64,000 nucleotides of DNA from a virus, in the IMG/VR virus record IMGVR_UViG_3300031088_000737, positions 96,001 to 160,000 of that record. One strand, 5' to 3'. Numbering within the stretch: the first letter of the stretch is position 1; the number at the start of each line of letters is the position of its first letter. The notes beneath the pieces were generated by a model. That model ran no database searches and was not told where the DNA came from. It saw nothing but the letters and a program-made list of their open reading frames with translations. Shown in pieces: positions 1 through 64,000 of the stretch. Made by a program: the position numbers and the translations under genes.

Positions 1-2259
1 GATGCTATTCGTCATATTTATGCAGGAGCTGCCACAGATATGGATGGTCGCCTTATATTATCTAACAATCGAGAGGATTTAGTTTTTGGTAAATTTATGG
101 AAGCCTTTGAACTGAGACTTCAAATGGGTGGTGTTCTCTTTATTGATAACCTTAATCAAGACCAAAAAGCAATTGACTCTTACATGGATCTTTTGAAAAA
201 ATTTGATTATGATTACCGTGTGGTTCAATTCCCATTGCAGCCTATTGAGTTTTATTATGCTCGTAACGATCAACGTGAACCTTATAAAAGATTGCCAAAA
301 GATGCGATTGATAGAAATTATGTGTTATTTCAGAATGCGTCATTTGATGATATGACAAAAATTATTACACCTGATGATGCGATTAAATTTGTTAAAGCTT
401 CACCAGAAGACTTAATGATTGATTTAAGTGGATATAATAAGATTCATTACATTGGTGATCTTCAAGGTTCCTTTTATCCATTAAAAAAGTATTTTGAACA
501 AGAAGGTGGTTTCAAAAAGAATGAATTCTATATCTTTGTAGGTGATTATATTGATCGTGGAATTGAAAATGATAAGTGTCTACACTTTTTAAGAAAGTAT
601 ATGGGTTATGATAACATTGTATTTCTTATGGGTAACCATGAGAAGCATTTGTATAACTACAGTAATGATATCTATACACCACCTGATGAATTCATGAAGA
701 AGACCTTGCCACAGCTTGAAAAAGCAGGTTTTACAAAAGAAGACATGAAAGAATTGTATCGTAAAATGCAATTGTTTAGCTTTATTCAATACAATGGACA
801 AAAAATCATGACCACACATGCTGGTTTGACGGCTATCCCTGAGTTTCCACGTCTCTTGTCTGATGATGAATACATGCGTGGTTATGGTCCATACAGCTAT
901 GATGTTGATGGTAAGTTTAATGAACAAAACAAAGACAATGAATGGTATCAAGTTCATGGTCATAGAAACCAACATAAACTAGATTTCAACAGTTATCCTA
1001 AAAGTTTTGCATTAGAAGCTGATGTTGAATATGGTGGTAGTTTGCCTGTATTGAGAGTCAGCCGTGAAGGTTTCAATGGTGTCTACATTACCAATAAAGT
1101 GTTTAATAAAGAAGAAGTCCTTAAAATGGAAAAAGCATCTGGCATGTTTGGTGTTGGTGAACCAGAAGGTGCTCTTGCTCATTTCTTAAACCGTAAAGTA
1201 GATGGTCACAAAAGTGGTGTTGAATTACTTCAAGAGTTGAGAAACAATAAGTTGTTGGTAGAAACTGTTTCTATTTCAAAGCCACATTTATCTACATTTA
1301 ATTTTAGCCATGATGTTGCTGACGCTAATATCCAAAAATCATCTGTTAAAATTCGTGGGCTTGTAGTGAATAACAAGACAGGTGATATCGTCACTCGTGG
1401 GTTTGATAAGTTTTATGCATTGAATGAAAAAGATGTTGCTGCTAATACATTAGAAGCTATTAAGGCAAAAGAAACGGGGGCTTTAAATGTATTTGAACAG
1501 GAAGATGGTCGTTTAGCCATGATTGGATATGACGTTGAAAATACTTCATTAGTGTTTACATCTAAACACGGAATTGATACTGCAGAAGCGGAGTCCTTTA
1601 AACAATTGATTTTGAGTAATCTTAAATCAAGTGAGCTTGAATTTATGAAAGTGTTTGCAAACAAACACAATGTTAACTATATTTTTGAAGTCATTGATCC
1701 AAAGAATGATTCAAACATCATTAAACCAGAGAATAGTTCTATTGTATTATTAGCAGTCGTAAAACGTGATGTTGTGCTATCACAATTAACATACGAAAAC
1801 TTAGAAGCCTTTGCTGGTCATTTTGAATCGCTTGAAGCTAAGAAAAAATTTGTAAGCTTTAACAACTTTGAAGGTTTTGAAAAATTCTGTAATGCCCTCA
1901 GTAATGAATCAGCATTCAAAACAAAAAGGCAAATGGAAGGATTTGTAGTAGAAGGAGCTGGTATGTTTATGGTTAAATTGCCTTACTATCAATTCTGGAA
2001 GTCAATGAGTGATTGCGTAAACCAAATCAATGTGGATGCTGTTAAAGGTGTTAAAACTGATCTCCCTGCTTTAGTAGAAGCATTAAATATCAAGTCAGAT
2101 GACAAGCCTAATGCGATTGAATTTTTGGAAAGTGTTAGAAGAATGTCGAAAGAAGAACGTGAATTAGATCTTGTGTCATTGAGAGAAAAGTTTTTGAGTT
2201 CAAGACCTGATCTTTCAGTTGTAGTAAAACCAAGAAAAAATAGGAACTCACCAAGTTAA
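1..2259 (+). CDS. Pnkp-like RNA end-healing/sealing protein (kinase remnant + metallophosphoesterase + RNA-ligase-like domain), 5'-truncated by the window
   Basis: The frame is open from base 1 (DAIRHIYAGAATD-MDG...). Phosphoesterase motifs GDLQG, GDYIDRG, GNHE, THAG and HGH are present. The C-terminal ligase-like motifs are RGFDKFY, EQEDG, SKHG and EGFVV. Confidence 0.75.
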   Translation, partial: DAIRHIYAGAATDMDGRLILSNNREDLVFGKFMEAFELRLQMGGVLFIDNLNQDQKAIDSYMDLLKKFDYDYRVVQFPLQPIEFYYARNDQREPYKRLPKDAIDRNYVLFQNASFDDMTKIITPDDAIKFVKASPEDLMIDLSGYNKIHYIGDLQGSFYPLKKYFEQEGGFKKNEFYIFVGDYIDRGIENDKCLHFLRKYMGYDNIVFLMGNHEKHLYNYSNDIYTPPDEFMKKTLPQLEKAGFTKEDMKELYRKMQLFSFIQYNGQKIMTTHAGLTAIPEFPRLLSDDEYMRGYGPYSYDVDGKFNEQNKDNEWYQVHGHRNQHKLDFNSYPKSFALEADVEYGGSLPVLRVSREGFNGVYITNKVFNKEEVLKMEKASGMFGVGEPEGALAHFLNRKVDGHKSGVELLQELRNNKLLVETVSISKPHLSTFNFSHDVADANIQKSSVKIRGLVVNNKTGDIVTRGFDKFYALNEKDVAANTLEAIKAKETGALNVFEQEDGRLAMIGYDVENTSLVFTSKHGIDTAEAESFKQLILSNLKSSELEFMKVFANKHNVNYIFEVIDPKNDSNIIKPENSSIVLLAVVKRDVVLSQLTYENLEAFAGHFESLEAKKKFVSFNNFEGFEKFCNALSNESAFKTKRQMEGFVVEGAGMFMVKLPYYQFWKSMSDCVNQINVDAVKGVKTDLPALVEALNIKSDDKPNAIEFLESVRRMSKEERELDLVSLREKFLSSRPDLSVVVKPRKNRNSPS

Positions 2260-46434: not shown

Positions 46435-46896
46435 TTATACACACTGAAATTTCTTGGTGATTTGTTTCACTTCTTCTTTGGTGCAAGGCCCAATACCGAG
46501 AGCGGTAATGATAGGAGAACCATCAAAGTGTGGTGGCAAAATATGACCTTGATCGACAATAATTGAACATGGCAATCCCGCAGCAATAGCTTGGTTGTAT
46601 GCTTTAATTAAGTGATCTTCATTTTTGGCTTTTAACGTAACCTTAGATCCGCCTGATTGACGATTTCTATAGAGCTTAACGTTTTCTGGGTGCGATTCTT
46701 GTGCGTTTGTTAATGCATCCGTATAAGCGTGACCAGCTTGAGCTGCAAGCTTACCCGTTGGCATGTTTAAATCGCCGCGAATAATTGAATAGATGTAGTA
46801 ATGTGAGTCTTTGTCCGAAGGAACAAATTGAGTGTATTGGCTAAGAATAGCCTCTTTGGTGATGAAGTCGAATTCGTTATTATCAATCTACAACAT
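46435..46896 (-). CDS. pth2: Peptidyl-tRNA hydrolase PTH2-type with in-frame TAG at codon 3
   Basis: IYSIIRGDLNMPTGKLAAQAGHA, KVTLKA, IVDQGH and TALGIGP motifs. SD AAGGAGA sits 7 nt before the ATG at 46896; the gene then reads ATG TTG TAG ATT GAT AAT and is open to the end. Confidence 0.85.
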
Positions 46897-59733: not shown

Positions 59734-59762
59734 TTGACTTTTTTTGAAAATAGGTTTATAAT
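59734..59762 (+). promoter_or_regulatory. Sigma70 promoter TTGACT-N17-TATAAT
   Basis: Read directly; drives the short leader ORF at 59791. Confidence 0.8.
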
Positions 59763-59832: not shown

Positions 59833-59891
59833 TGAGCTAATCTCATTGAGAGGGGTTAGCACACGCTAAACCCTCTGGCAAACGAATGTGG

Positions 59892-59925
59892 AGCCTTTGA
59901 GGGTAATAACTCAAAGGCTTTTTTT
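59892..59925 (+). terminator. Intrinsic terminator after the leader
   Basis: AGCCTTTGAG-GGTAATAA-CTCAAAGGCT followed by a T-run. Confidence 0.85.
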
Positions 59926-60016: not shown

Positions 60017-60045
60017 TTGACAAAGGTGAAAAGAGTTGGTAAGAT
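60017..60045 (+). promoter_or_regulatory. tRNA-operon promoter TTGACA-N17-TAAGAT
   Basis: Located about 57 nt upstream of the first tRNA. Confidence 0.7.
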
Positions 60046-60101: not shown

Positions 60102-60179
60102 GGGGGCACATGTTCCAAGGGATGGCGAGTTTGCCTTGCACGCAGACTGCGAAGAGTTCGATTCTCTTTGTCTCCACCA
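60102..60179 (+). tRNA. tRNA-Ala(TGC)
   Basis: G3:U70, loop CT-TGC-AC, TTCGA T-loop and encoded CCA. Confidence 0.85.
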
Positions 60180-60220
60180 AATTTGTTGACTTGATGTGTT
60201 ATAGAACAAACTTAAAATAT

Positions 60221-60295
60221 GGGCTGTTAGTTTAACTGGGAAAATACCTGCCTTGCACGCAGATGTTCAGAGTTCGATTCTCTGACGGTCCACCA
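60221..60295 (+). tRNA. tRNA-Ala(TGC)
   Basis: GGGCTGT/ACGGTCC acceptor with G3:U70; CCA. Confidence 0.88.
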
Positions 60296-60319
60296 GATTA
60301 GTTGTAGAAAGAGAATTAT

Positions 60320-60396
60320 GTCTGCGTAGCTCAGTTGGATAGAGCATCCGCCTTCTAAGCGGATGGTCGTTGGTTCGAATCCAACCGTAGACACCA
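60320..60396 (+). tRNA. tRNA-Arg(TCT)
   Basis: TCCGC-CTTCTAA-GCGGA anticodon arm; CCA. Confidence 0.92.
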
Positions 60397-60416
60397 AATT
60401 AGATGTAACCAGATAT

Positions 60417-60491
60417 GGGCTGATAGTTTAACTGGGAAAACACTTGCCTTGCACGCAGGAGTTCAGAGTTCGATTCTCTGTCGGTCCACCA
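60417..60491 (+). tRNA. tRNA-Ala(TGC)
   Basis: Near copy of 60221-60295; G3:U70; CCA. Confidence 0.88.
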
Positions 60492-60508
60492 GATTTAAGT
60501 AATACAAT

Positions 60509-60583
60509 GGGGCTTTTAGTTTAACTGGCAAAACCTTGGGATTTCTCCTAAAGAATATGGTTCGAGTCCATATAGCTCCACCA
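60509..60583 (+). ncRNA. tRNA-Ala-like RNA with aberrant 6-nt anticodon loop
   Basis: GGGGCT/AGCTCC-ACCA acceptor (G3:U70), normal D and T arms; the arm reads TTGGG-ATTTCT-CCTAA. Confidence 0.7.
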
Positions 60584-60598
60584 GTTTATAAGTTTCAT

Positions 60599-60675
60599 GG
60601 GCCATTAGTTCAGTTGGTAGAACGCCTGCTTTGCACGCAGGATGTCATGAGTTCAAATCTCATATGTGTCCACCA
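60599..60675 (+). tRNA. tRNA-Ala(TGC) with one bulged base in the acceptor stem
   Basis: CCTGC-TTTGCAC-GCAGG; the 3' acceptor strand ATGTGTCC is 8 nt long. Confidence 0.8.
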
Positions 60676-60692
60676 GTTTTAAAATTTTATAC

Positions 60693-60766
60693 GGGGTTTT
60701 AGTTTAACTATCGAAAAACAACAAGGAAACTTGTAAATGAAAGGTCGAAACTTTCAGACTCCACCA
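60693..60766 (+). ncRNA. tRNA-Ala-like RNA with GAAA tetraloop in place of the anticodon loop
   Basis: GGGGTTT/AGACTCC-ACCA (G3:U70) and ACAAG-GAAA-CTTGT. The D-loop lacks GG and the T-loop is GTCGAAA. Confidence 0.72.
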
Positions 60767-60781
60767 AATAATGTTTTTTAT

Positions 60782-60857
60782 ATTCTCATAGCTCAACTGG
60801 AAGAGCAATGACCTTCTAAGTCATCGGTTGTAGGTTCGAGTCCTACTGGGAATGCCA
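60782..60857 (+). tRNA. tRNA-Arg(TCT)
   Basis: ATGAC-CTTCTAA-GTCAT; ends GCCA. Confidence 0.9.
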
Positions 60858-60863
60858 AATTAG

Positions 60864-61040
60864 TTAGTTGATGTTTCAACTGATTTAAACGCTACATGTT
60901 GCCTGATTAGCAACTAGTATACTGGTCAAGTATGATTGAAGCAGCTTAATCACTGCAGTCTGACCTCTGATAAGTATATCCGGTAGGTATTTACCGTCAC
61001 TTCGAAGCGTGGAGATATTTATTATCGTTGAAGCGTTAGC
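60864..61040 (+). ncRNA. Unassigned multi-stem structured RNA candidate within the tRNA operon
   Basis: Several nested inverted repeats, closed by AACGCT/AGCGTT; no credible ORF. Confidence 0.45.
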
Positions 61041-61054
61041 GGAAATACTATTAT

Positions 61055-61129
61055 GGGCTGTTAGTTTAGCTGGGAAAATACCTGCCTTGCACGCAGGAGT
61101 GCTGGGTTCGAGTCCCTGACGGTCCACCA
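61055..61129 (+). tRNA. tRNA-Ala(TGC)
   Basis: G3:U70; CCTGC-CTTGCAC-GCAGG; one T-stem mismatch; CCA. Confidence 0.85.
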
Positions 61130-61141
61130 GTTTTGTTGTTT

Positions 61142-61218
61142 GTCCGTGTAGCTCAGTTGGATAGAGCGTCTGCCTCCTAAGCGGAAGGTCGTAGGTTCAA
61201 ATCCTATCACGGACGCCA
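61142..61218 (+). tRNA. tRNA-Arg(CCT)
   Basis: TCTGC-CTCCTAA-GCGGA; ends GCCA. Confidence 0.9.
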
Positions 61219-61248
61219 GTTTTGATATTTTATTTAGAGGATTAATCA

Positions 61249-61782
61249 ATGGTAATTGCTTATGTGGCACCTTTGTTAAAAGATGATTATATTAACGCAA
61301 CCGCTGATAATAAAACTATTAAAGAAAGTCATGATATTCGTGAAAAAATTGTAGCTCGCTCTCTTTATGTATTTGATAAAATTGCTGAGTTGTTGAATTT
61401 AAAATATAATTGGGTTGCTTTTGATACTATTGATTTAGAAAAATATCAAGGTGCCGATAACGGAGAATATGATTATCAGCGTTATTTTGAAACGTTTAAA
61501 TTTTATAGTGATATTGACGAATTAGAATATAAAAATAAAATTATTGATGTTTATTGTAATCAATTTCCATCAAGTTTTATTTATGAAGAATTTGAAGATG
61601 AAGTTCTTGGAACGGCTGAATCAATTAAGCTAGGTATTGATTTAAAAAAAGAAAGAGCAGATAGAAAACGAAAACATGATAAGGATAAAGAAAAAGAACG
61701 CAATAAGATTAGACCAGAAGTAATAGCTTCTATTAAATCTAAATTGAGTGAATTAGAATTATCTTTTGTTGATTTTAAATGA
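61249..61782 (+). CDS. Hypothetical protein embedded in the tRNA cluster
   Basis: SD GAGG; acidic body with a basic coiled tail. Confidence 0.7.
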   Translation: MVIAYVAPLLKDDYINATADNKTIKESHDIREKIVARSLYVFDKIAELLNLKYNWVAFDTIDLEKYQGADNGEYDYQRYFETFKFYSDIDELEYKNKIIDVYCNQFPSSFIYEEFEDEVLGTAESIKLGIDLKKERADRKRKHDKDKEKERNKIRPEVIASIKSKLSELELSFVDFK

Positions 61783-61863
61783 TTTAACAAAGAATAAGGG
61801 AGTTTTACTGTAAAGGTGAAACTGGATTGGAGCCGTGGTTTCCGGGGGGCATTCATTCACTAT

Positions 61864-61940
61864 GGGATTTTAGCTCAGTTGGTTAGAGCATCCGACTCAT
61901 AATCGGCAGGTCGTAAGTTCAAGTCTTACAAGTCCCACCA
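61864..61940 (+). tRNA. tRNA with CAT anticodon, probably Ile2 (lysidine)
   Basis: CCGA-CTCATAA-TCGG arm with C29:G41, resembling ileX-type tRNAs. Met is not excluded. Confidence 0.8.
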
Positions 61941-61956
61941 AATTAGATGTGTATAT

Positions 61957-62031
61957 GGTTCTGTAGCATAACGGTAAATGCACCCCGCTCATAACGGGAT
62001 GATTAAGGTTCGATTCCTTGCAGAACCACCA
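61957..62031 (+). tRNA. tRNA with CAT anticodon (elongator Met or Ile2)
   Basis: CCCG-CTCATAA-CGGG; G1:C72 is paired, so it is not initiator-like; CCA. Confidence 0.8.
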
Positions 62032-62034
62032 GAT

Positions 62035-62163
62035 AGTAGAAAGGTAGCTTAACGGGAGAGCAGCCGGGATGACCCGGTAACTTTAAATCTCATGTCAGAT
62101 AAATTCTCGTAATTTATAGGCCATGTGGATAGTGGTAATGGTTCGAATCCATTGCTTTCTACT
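62035..62163 (+). ncRNA. tRNA-like RNA with no anticodon loop and a 58-nt variable arm
   Basis: AGTAGAAAG/CTTTCTACT closing stem, D arm GCTT..GAGC, GCCGGG-ATGA-CCCGGT and T arm AATGG-TTCGAAT-CCATT. No encoded CCA. Confidence 0.62.
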
Positions 62164-62171
62164 TGCATTTT

Positions 62172-62247
62172 GGGGTTGTAGTTCAGTTGGTAGAACGCTT
62201 GTATGGCATACAAGAGGTCGTGGGTTCGAATCCCATCTTCTCCACCA
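62172..62247 (+). tRNA. tRNA-Ala(GGC) with two acceptor-stem mismatches
   Basis: CTTGT-ATGGCAT-ACAAG; G3:U70; U5/U68 and U6/U67 are unpaired; CCA. Confidence 0.78.
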
Positions 62248-62252
62248 AATAT

Positions 62253-62280
62253 AAAGAGAACTTTCGAGTTCTCTTTTTTA
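62253..62280 (+). terminator. Terminator ending the tRNA operon
   Basis: AAGAGAAC-TTTCGA-GTTCTCTT followed by a T-run. Confidence 0.8.
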
Positions 62281-62338: not shown

Positions 62339-63169
62339 GTGATTAAAAGTTCATTAAAAGATATCAATAAATCATTAAAAACACATTACAAAAGCCCTTT
62401 TAAAGTATCTAATTATAAAGAAGAACTTGAAGGAGAAATAGTCGATTTTGTTGTTATTGAAGATATTAATAAGCGAACACTCGCTCGCTTTCAATACCTA
62501 AAAGAAGATGGTGCTATTATCTCTGGTTACAATGACTCTCCATTATATAAATCAGAACGCGAACAATATTTTCCAGCATATTATGATCAACAACACTTGG
62601 ATATCTATCAAAAAGTATTCGATTTGTTTTATGATAATCCTATTGTAAAAGAATATGTTCAAAAATATTCGCTTGGCACCGTTAATAAAAATATGTTTGA
62701 TATTAGCGATGATCATAGACGTGGCGTCTCATTAATCAAATGTTTCTATTTTTTAGGCAACAGCAGTCGTTCTGATAGTTCTATTGGGCTTCAATATTAT
62801 ATCAATGAACATGGTAAAATCACACCACGAATGAAAATTAAGTTTTCATTCATGACCTGTGGCAGTCTTACTATCTATTATGATTACTCATCTAATAGCT
62901 TTCATTTTGGCAAAGCCAGTTTTAATGAATCCAATAAACTTGTTAAACTTGATGATGAAAAGACGACTGAATTATTTAATATTAAGTCTGGTGAGGTATT
63001 CATTGATGATGAGCATTTAAATCTAATCTTCACTCGTTGGATGTTGGAAATGGGATATCGGTTAAACAAACAAGCTTTTGTCGCTTACAAGATGGATGAA
63101 TTCATTGAACTTGCTGACACAGCAAAAGTGATTGAACATCTAAGTTTGATAAAAATGGCACTTATTTAA
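62339..63169 (+). CDS. Hypothetical protein, family D, M-x-x-I tail
   Basis: GTG start with SD GAGGA; ends EHLSLIKMALI. Confidence 0.7.
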   Translation: MIKSSLKDINKSLKTHYKSPFKVSNYKEELEGEIVDFVVIEDINKRTLARFQYLKEDGAIISGYNDSPLYKSEREQYFPAYYDQQHLDIYQKVFDLFYDNPIVKEYVQKYSLGTVNKNMFDISDDHRRGVSLIKCFYFLGNSSRSDSSIGLQYYINEHGKITPRMKIKFSFMTCGSLTIYYDYSSNSFHFGKASFNESNKLVKLDDEKTTELFNIKSGEVFIDDEHLNLIFTRWMLEMGYRLNKQAFVAYKMDEFIELADTAKVIEHLSLIKMALI

Positions 63170-63195: not shown

Positions 63196-64000
63196 ATGAT
63201 TCGCAATTCATTAAAAACTATTAAGAAAACAATTAGAAAAAAATATCCAAAACCTTTTGATGTATCAACGTTCATAAAAACTAAACCAGAAGTCGCTGGC
63301 ACCTATATTGTTATTAAAGATTTCAATAAAGAAGCTATTGCGGAGTTTAAATATAATCAAGAAGATGGTGCTATTCTGATAGGTTATGACAATTCTCCTA
63401 AATATCGAGAGTATTATGAAAAGAATTTTCCAGAATTACATATCAAAGAACACCTTAATTACTATCAGGAAGTGTTTGATAAACTTCATGAGAACTCCAT
63501 TTTTAAAGAACTTTTTGAAGTTGATTTGGAGCCTCTAAAAGTAACTGAAGATATGTTTTCACTCAATAAAGAATGCATTAAACGTTTGCATGTTAACAAA
63601 ACATTTAAAAACCTAGTACCGGCTGGACTACATATTTCTATTTGCTTTCAATATTACGTTAATGATAACTTTATGTTAAAACCTCGAATGAAATTTAATT
63701 TTGAGTTTGATGATTTTGGGAGCTTGATTCTTTATTATGACTATGATACGAAATGTCTTCATTTCGGTGAAATTCAATTTGTAGACAGTGAAACATTTAA
63801 AGATTTGAATACTAATAATGTTACTTTTATCAATAACTTACCTTTTTACATCACTAAAAGACACTTACAGATGTTAGGCTTAGATACAAAAAAAACAGAT
63901 ATTGAATTTTATGCTTTGAATAATGATGAAAGTTATTCTTTAATGAGTATTAACCAACAAGATCCAATTAAGACTTTTTCGAAGTTGAAAAGCATCTTTG
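63196..64000 (+). CDS. Family D paralog, 3'-truncated by the window (not in the ORF track)
   Basis: SD AAGGA; open to the window end. Shares EDGAI..GY..SP.Y and QYY.N......PRMK..F.F...GSL..YYDY with 62339-63169. Confidence 0.75.
   Translation, partial: MIRNSLKTIKKTIRKKYPKPFDVSTFIKTKPEVAGTYIVIKDFNKEAIAEFKYNQEDGAILIGYDNSPKYREYYEKNFPELHIKEHLNYYQEVFDKLHENSIFKELFEVDLEPLKVTEDMFSLNKECIKRLHVNKTFKNLVPAGLHISICFQYYVNDNFMLKPRMKFNFEFDDFGSLILYYDYDTKCLHFGEIQFVDSETFKDLNTNNVTFINNLPFYITKRHLQMLGLDTKKTDIEFYALNNDESYSLMSINQQDPIKTFSKLKSIF

Follow-up and report, generated by a model that had tools for sequence, protein, structure and literature searches.

AlaRS charges minihelices that carry the G3:U70 pair and does not need the anticodon for this. 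On alanylation by way of the tRNA-Ala acceptor stem, see also PMC11392972. The non-proteogenic tRNA-Gly species of Staphylococcus aureus are poor partners for EF-Tu and the ribosome, and their selection by FmhB depends on determinants located in the D and T stem-loops (PMC7826273). FemX of Weissella, a Fem enzyme using Ala-tRNA, accepts helices of the Ala acceptor arm, which is the only part that is read (PMC2655667). CDS-less tmRNAs of approximately 65 nt exist as well, and the form found in mycobacteriophage DS6A inhibits the endogenous tmRNA of Escherichia coli (PMC11915505). Irregular or inactive tRNAs of polycistrons—the allo-tRNA-like species and the tRNA-Other of Bacillus cereus—are possibly charged and unused in translation, some of them being tied to toxin–antitoxin loci (PMC5389517).

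The tRNA genes of phages and other large elements are now mostly viewed as a codon supply or as anti-defence, and both uses need an anticodon. As for the second, phages amplify a single tRNA gene beside a homing endonuclease against a tRNA-cleaving defence (PMC13096335), and an extra phage tRNA partly suppresses the degradation of host tRNA (PMC13096335; see also PMC11555353).

The locus described here lies in a 64-kb window, meaning the whole stretch of DNA that was analysed, which comprises bases 96001–160000 of a 181-kb record (G000), 31% G+C, classed as viral by IMG/VR. On its plus strand, positions 60693–60766 hold a tRNA-Ala look-alike of 74 nt without an anticodon, recognised by sequence and fold and named X2 herein. 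It is best explained as a gene, presumably a working one, for a non-decoding paralogue of tRNA-Ala.

Architecture of X2

The acceptor consists of a 5′ strand (60693–60699) and its partner strand (60756–60762), which form the pairs G1:C72, G2:C71, G3:U70, G4:C69, U5:A68, U6:G67, and U7:A66, with G3:U70 located at 60695/60759. The 3′ end is made up of the discriminator A73 and an encoded CCA (60763–60766), both of which are invariant across the homologues. The D-arm (60702–60719) has a stem of 4 bp and a 10-nt loop without G18G19, the two guanines that normally lock the elbow. The place of the anticodon arm is taken by a sealed hairpin (60721–60734) of the form ACAAG-GAAA-CTTGT, that is, a 5-bp stem closed by a GAAA loop. 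It is followed by a variable loop of 4 nt and by the T-arm (60739–60755), whose 5-bp stem includes G53:C61 and A51:U63 and whose 7-nt loop, GTCGAAA, has G54 instead of T54. As read from the sequence, the core-contact bases are in place, namely U8, A14, A15, the last base of the variable loop, and the A's that end the D-loop. The minimum-free-energy fold retains the acceptor, the anticodon-arm hairpin, and the T hairpin, with z = −2.1 against shuffles. No ORF of at least 50 aa overlaps X2 on either strand. What the sequence-only reading had stated about the acceptor, the hairpin, the D-loop, the T-loop, and A51:U63 is correct in every point on direct reading.

Where the anticodon loop of a decoding tRNA-Ala has 7 nt and includes U33 and an alanine anticodon, the loop of X2 has 4 nt. 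The canonical elbow, formed by G18G19 and T54-Psi55-C56, is likewise lacking, and the homologue on contig L127 is also changed at position 56. The AlaRS identity set of G3:U70, A73, G2:C71, and G4:C69 is complete in X2 and, at the level of sequence, invariant in the four distinct homologues. Sequence and structure make X2 a member of the tRNA family, though one that lacks the single feature essential for decoding.

Detection by tRNA and tmRNA models

The sequence-only reading had pointed to tRNA detectors as a check, and the outcome is divided. With default settings, ARAGORN leaves X2 uncalled; with lowered thresholds, it returns a false "Ser-gga", which is obtained by opening the stem. The Rfam tRNA model RF00005 misses X2 in scans of 64 kb and of 5 kb, even at E ≤ 10. 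Applied to a 91-nt stretch alone, where filters are laxer, it recovers X2 in full length (1–71) with 37.3 bits and E = 4e-7, a score above the gathering cut-off of 29 bits under these lax filters only. The alignment places a 3-nt deletion exactly at the anticodon loop. Standard pipelines, meaning ARAGORN and the default filters of Rfam, miss X2, and the class to which it may belong could be much larger than is apparent.

A tag-less analogue of tmRNA is conceivable, in which Ala-X2 would enter or block stalled ribosomes or compete with the tmRNA of the host, and the alanine identity, the missing anticodon, and the phage-like element would all suit such a role. We regard it as very improbable: the tmRNA families of Rfam do not match X2 at E ≤ 10, the 91-nt stretch alone included, and a tmRNA search with ARAGORN reports none. 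X2 possesses a complete D-stem as well as an anticodon-stem hairpin, and its T-loop is non-canonical. In a tmRNA, the space of these two is filled by SmpB, and neither the 181-kb record nor G001, a relative of 437 kb, contains an SmpB gene (PF01668). The YrlA model RF02553 yields only matches of 17–21 bits that span neighbouring tRNAs, compared with a cut-off of 69, and none on X2 alone. X2 falls into no non-tRNA family of Rfam.

The tRNA array and its sealed-loop members

X2 is part of a tRNA array on the plus strand (60104–62247) that comprises five Ala-UGC, one Ala-GGC, two Arg-UCU, one Arg-CCU, and two CAU tRNAs together with three look-alikes, X1, X2, and X3. The sequential order is Ala-UGC, Ala-UGC, Arg-UCU, Ala-UGC, X1, Ala-UGC, X2, Arg-UCU, a 190-nt spacer, Ala-UGC, Arg-CCU, the protein gene ORF177, two CAU tRNAs, X3, and Ala-GGC. 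The spacers from X2 to the flanking tRNAs measure 21 and 15 nt. A sigma-70-like promoter (60017–60045, plus strand; 10 of 12 matches and an extended −10 TG) precedes the array, and a terminator-like hairpin with a T run (62253–62276, plus strand) closes it. No terminator-like site is found on the plus strand between this promoter and X2, and the simplest reading would be that X2 is co-transcribed with the array. An attenuator-like leader, with a promoter at 59734 and a terminator at 59890–59921, also lies ahead of the array.

This arrangement bears on a regulatory or processing role, in which X2, charged or uncharged, would titrate AlaRS, RNase P, the CCA-adding enzyme, or another factor, or would serve as an extra cleavage point. 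X2 lies inside an operon with an attenuator-like leader, and its conserved parts are those read by RNase P and AlaRS. An extra cleavage point is unneeded, however, with real tRNAs only 15–21 nt away, and titration leaves the conserved non-canonical D- and T-loops unexplained. We consider this role unlikely.

X1 (60509–60583, plus strand) is a second alanine-type look-alike, in which a 6-bp stem with a 4-nt loop replaces the anticodon loop. Its D-loop GG and its T-loop are normal. The homologues of X1 (L112:3814–3889 and L127:5744–5818) have 6-bp stems with 5- or 4-nt loops, and the rule of a sealed loop holds for X1 in all three lineages. ARAGORN reads the homologue of L112 as Ala-UGC despite the sealed fold. 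X3 (62038–62164, plus strand) scores 31.9 bits with RF00005 and folds into the shape of a tRNA whose anticodon hairpin is sealed and which contains a long insert. Further sealed-loop look-alikes occur in L112 and G001, and anticodon-less paralogues are a regular feature of these arrays. Tentatively, X1, X2, and the other look-alikes might make up an undescribed class of phage or mobile-element RNAs, namely aminoacylatable, anticodon-less tRNAs that would serve as alanine carriers for a dedicated non-ribosomal partner or as aminoacylated acceptor-end bait.

Two of the further look-alikes can be described individually. L112:4320–4398, situated between two Ala genes, is tRNA-shaped and has a 5-bp stem with a 5-nt loop for the anticodon loop and no CCA. 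L115:1174–1250 of G001 is tRNA-like and not called by ARAGORN; its anticodon arm consists of a 5-bp G+C stem with a 6-nt loop, and tRNAs of Leu, CUA-suppressor, and Met type are found downstream of it.

Other array members show peculiarities of their own. The Ala-UGC next to X2 (60599–60674) can form its acceptor stem, as read from its sequence, only if one U bulges out of the 3′ strand; the bulge is kept in L112:4236–4308 together with a compensatory change at pair 4:69. The spacer of approximately 190 nt between Arg-UCU and Ala-UGC (60858–61054) is clearly conserved at L129:170–366 and may represent a separate structured RNA. L009:7466–7630 of G001 is 71% identical to 61050–61221 of the window, which holds Ala-UGC and Arg-CCU, and is itself read as tRNA-Thr(UGU) and a tRNA with a 4-base "agaa" anticodon. 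This suggests a switching of identity or anticodon among the array paralogues.

Relatives of X2

Relatives were sought by way of the neighbouring ORF177 (61249–61782, plus strand), which lies within the tRNA array in every related lineage found (L009, L112, L122, L126, L127, and L129). Because they were gathered through this gene and not through X2, the test of conservation is unbiased. Homologues of X2 were then scored with R1, a model built from X2, and match it with 64–96 bits and E values of 1e-16 to 1e-25. In five further samples (ERZ27247443, DRR865524, ERR11479726, ERR11456357, and SRR8869671), ORF177 is 100% identical to that of the window and the copies of X2 are identical as well. 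The contigs L112 (1.54 Mb), L126, and L122, with an ORF177 of 66–67% identity to the window, contain homologues of X2 at L112:4156–4228, L126:33–105, and L122:3246–3318, scoring 92–96 bits. L127, a 1.04-Mb contig whose ORF177 is 54% identical, contains one at L127:5490–5565 with 64.5 bits.

Two relatives are without it. G001, whose ORF177 is 51% identical, has no homologue of X2; its best match to R1 was rejected, being a CUA suppressor tRNA. On the 1.8-kb contig L129, whose ORF177 is 72% identical, no X2 is seen and the contig starts there; an ordinary tRNA-Ala lies directly before the Arg2-type gene, which is the place of X2 in the window. The gene order of the array is shuffled between lineages. 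In each of the three lineages with X2, one of its neighbours is the same type of Ala-UGC (the 60599 copy).

Beyond these lineages, two gapped patterns made from the X2-specific D-loop, T-loop, and acceptor have no match in the viral or genome contig collections. A looser 18-nt pattern of the 5′ part finds 94 loci, none of which is X2-like by R1. A blastn search against 50,697 isolated phage records gives chance-level matches only.

Selection on the X2 frame

Outside the hairpin, the frame of X2 is identical at 51 of 59 positions between the window and L112, at 47 of 59 between the window and L127, and at 43 of 59 between L112 and L127. For the same pairs, the four-fold sites of ORF177 are only 52%, 62%, and 44% identical, values close to saturation at this base composition. 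Between L112 and L122, X2 differs at two bases, both in the hairpin loop, with the ORF177 proteins being 81% and the four-fold sites 58% identical.

Standard pairs occupy 97.6% of the pair cells in the four distinct sequences of X2, compared with 29–55% after shifting the partners by one to three columns. All seven acceptor pairs form in each of the four distinct homologues. Two-sided changes occur at four pairs. The hairpin stem accounts for two of them; the others are the acceptor pair 5:68, which alternates between U:A and C:G, and the T-stem pair 50:64, which is A:U, U:A, or C:G. The covariation score of the set is reached by none of 500 shuffles. As it comes from four related sequences only, the covariation may be taken as good support, short of proof. 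G3:U70, U6:G67, A73, and CCA are invariant in the family, and G1–G4 are always kept.

These data also bear on the possibility that X2 is a non-functional remnant, meaning a tRNA-Ala duplicate from which three loop bases are gone and which persists only through linkage or gene conversion with its neighbours. The array is rich in recombining Ala paralogues, its gene order varies between lineages, X2 is absent from G001, and it changes somewhat faster than its neighbours, with a whole-length identity of 71–78% compared with 78–100% for most true tRNAs of the array. The excess is concentrated in the hairpin. Against a remnant, X2 is retained in three lineages in which synonymous sites are near saturation, and compensatory changes are found in three different helices. 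The distinctive D- and T-loops occur in no neighbouring paralogue, and the loop is short in every lineage by way of different sequences with the stem still paired. A remnant appears quite unlikely, and X2 is, as judged from these alignments, a conserved and structurally constrained gene rather than a decayed copy. The sequence-only reading, which had held X2 to be selected rather than decayed and had named a lack of conserved homologues among the findings that would speak against it, is borne out herein by the homologues of 64–96 bits in three diverged lineages, whose pairs are kept and show compensatory changes.

The sealed hairpin and the elbow

The hairpin takes a different form in each lineage: 5 bp with a 4-nt loop, approximately 3–4 bp with a 3–5-nt loop, and 5 bp with a 6-nt loop. 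No homologue has a 7-nt anticodon loop. Since both sequence and length of the hairpin differ per lineage, a GNRA tetraloop is not the selected feature; judging from the sequences, what is selected is a short closed hairpin and not GNRA or GAAA as such. The emphasis that the sequence-only reading had put on the tetraloop does not survive this comparison, the loops of the homologues having 3–5 and 6 nt and unrelated sequences. Its view of X2 as non-decoding agrees with loops of 3–6 nt in all homologues, and the alanine acceptor identity that it had recognised is retained as a full set in every one of them.

The D-loop and T-loop of the window and of the L112 lineage are the same except for one base. 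Gene conversion cannot maintain them because no neighbouring paralogue carries these loops. Such near-identical non-canonical loops in two lineages would argue for specific recognition over drift. In the homologue of L127, the D- and T-loops are different and again non-canonical, and the elbow signature is not universal. A kissing pair of D-loop and T-loop (TCGA with TCGA) was considered as a substitute elbow and dropped, as L127 has neither motif.

Genomic setting

ORF177 is found with identical sequence on contigs of up to 1.86 Mb. The replicon exceeds 1 Mb and may be a phage of very large size, a plasmid-like element, or else a small bacterial genome. Terminase_6N has no match in the 181-kb record or in the 437-kb G001. 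Genes with OmpA domains lie near the array and suggest a Gram-negative setting.

The ORF177 protein has no Pfam or PHROG match and gives no lead from Atlas; a long basic C-terminal helix is predicted. It was considered as a partner of X2 and set aside, as there is no lead, the structure model is poor (pLDDT 58), and Pfam, PHROGs, and Atlas are empty. Directly after the array follow two tandem paralogous ORFs (62339–63169 and 63196–63999) with no match in Pfam or PHROG.

Several genes of the element are concerned with tRNA. A gene for a PTH2-type peptidyl-tRNA hydrolase (46438–46887, minus strand; PF01981, E = 7e-25), which has an amber stop at codon 3, lies 14 kb upstream. A fusion of a phosphoesterase with a T4 Rnl1-type RNA ligase (1–2259, plus strand; PF00149 and PF09511), a tRNA-repair-type enzyme, is encoded at the start of the window. 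An HNH homing endonuclease is encoded directly upstream of the array of X2, and a second array in the same record contains 11–12 Leu tRNAs plus odd members.

This setting speaks for a decoy or buffer in a conflict over tRNA, in which X2, and X1 with it, would absorb, or compete for, a factor directed against the acceptor end or the body of tRNA-Ala and would spare the decoding copies. Candidate attackers are an acceptor-stem tRNase or a toxin that either modifies the CCA end or, as an acetyltransferase, targets aminoacyl-tRNA, and the anticodon would be needless if the attacker ignores it. The element is rich in tRNA upkeep (the ligase/phosphoesterase fusion and PTH2), its arrays are each dominated by a single amino-acid family, Ala here and Leu in the second one, and a homing endonuclease is at hand. 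A decoy should nevertheless resemble its target, and the elbow of X2 deviates from the canonical one, the deviation being conserved. No toxin directed at tRNA-Ala is known in the host. Classic anticodon nucleases recognise the anticodon loop, and X2 would not bind to them. Since X2 is without that loop, the wording of the sequence-only reading, a decoy that anticodon nucleases cannot cut, is weak, and a decoy role fits factors that read the acceptor end better. We consider such a role, the main rival of the carrier reading given below, possible and hold it with some doubt.

A further observation concerns mini-AlaRS proteins, which consist of the catalytic core only (277–309 aa, PF01411 positions ~12–131) without the parts for tRNA recognition and editing and without C-Ala. 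They are encoded at L131:1483–2316 in G001 and at L132:8001–8930 on the 1.54-Mb contig, and the family comprises at least 865 metagenome proteins of about 230–330 aa. One member lies on a 1.86-Mb contig, 1.86 Mb also being the length of the longest contig that bears ORF177. A 213-aa ORF (L132:8933–9574) starts 3 nt past the mini-AlaRS gene; it has no Pfam match, and its sole matches among solved structures are to EF-P, which are weak with E about 1e-3. The two could be an EpmA/EF-P-like pair built on AlaRS. A tie between mini-AlaRS and X2 is not drawn, and the EF-P-like adjacency is absent in G001.

A putative alanyl carrier outside the ribosome

The favoured reading, to which we give a probability of roughly 0.35, is that X2 may act as a ribosome-insulated alanyl carrier for a dedicated off-ribosome partner. 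Release of X2 from the transcript would fall to RNase P and the enzymes that trim 3′ ends, as for the flanking tRNAs. X2 would be alanylated by AlaRS, an enzyme that relies on the acceptor stem and disregards the anticodon; charging is expected because G3:U70 and A73 suffice even in minihelices. The product would be unable to pair with a codon, and the non-canonical elbow—lacking G18G19 and carrying G54—would keep it off the ribosome and offer the partner a feature to recognise. That partner could be, for instance, an aminoacyl-transferase or another enzyme handling aminoacyl-tRNA. An off-ribosome use of Ala-X2 is favoured because the elbow is non-canonical yet conserved. X2 would thereby follow the principle of the staphylococcal tRNA-Gly and extend it by the removal of the anticodon loop.

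Some observations stand against the carrier. FemAB (PF02388), Acetyltransf_6 (PF13480), LPG_synthase_C (PF09924), and Leu_Phe_trans (PF03588) are absent from the 181-kb record and from the 437-kb G001, meaning that no transferase of Fem, MprF, or L/F type is found in either. In addition, G001 is without X2, L129 has an ordinary Ala gene in its place, and the loops of L127 differ.

X2 suggests that a tRNA scaffold may be used off the ribosome in these elements, either to carry an activated amino acid or to bait enzymes that act on tRNA ends. If true, this would be a second, codon-independent use of the tRNA scaffold that is maintained alongside decoding copies.

Comparison with known systems

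A literature search found no account of conserved RNAs that combine a full cloverleaf with a sealed anticodon arm and alanine identity, and X2 shares features with several described RNAs. Like X2, the non-proteogenic tRNA-Gly species of S. aureus are extra paralogues of a single family that have kept their synthetase identity and are altered in the D and T regions. They retain a normal 7-nt anticodon loop, whereas X2 has none. Furthermore, they donate glycine to FmhB, FemA, and FemB, whereas the amino acid of X2 would be alanine and no Fem-type enzyme is found, and the setting of X2 is apparently Gram-negative, unlike that of the staphylococcal tRNA-Gly.

The Y RNAs of YrlA type (RF02553) are, like X2, anticodon-less tRNA mimics in bacteria and phages. 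Their ends sit in the Ro-binding stem and their acceptor-like stem is closed, whereas the acceptor of X2 is open and ends in CCA. The CDS-less tmRNAs, which occur in DS6A, in jakobid mitochondria, and in some plastids, are short alanine acceptors without anticodon and reading frame as X2 is. X2 differs from them by being a complete cloverleaf derived from tRNA-Ala, with a D-stem and an anticodon-stem hairpin, and by matching no tmRNA model. The allo-tRNA-like and tRNA-Other species carry anticodons, and many have 8/4 or 9/3 acceptor/T-stems (PMC5389517), in contrast to the 7/5 arrangement, sealed loop, and alanine identity of X2.

Minihelices and microhelices of tRNA-Ala share with X2 an acceptor with G3:U70 and A73 that works without an anticodon. 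They are laboratory constructs, whereas X2 occurs naturally as a conserved gene and retains the core of the L-shape in full. By analogy, X2 would most resemble the non-proteogenic tRNA-Gly, or else a natural, full-length counterpart of the alanine minihelix.
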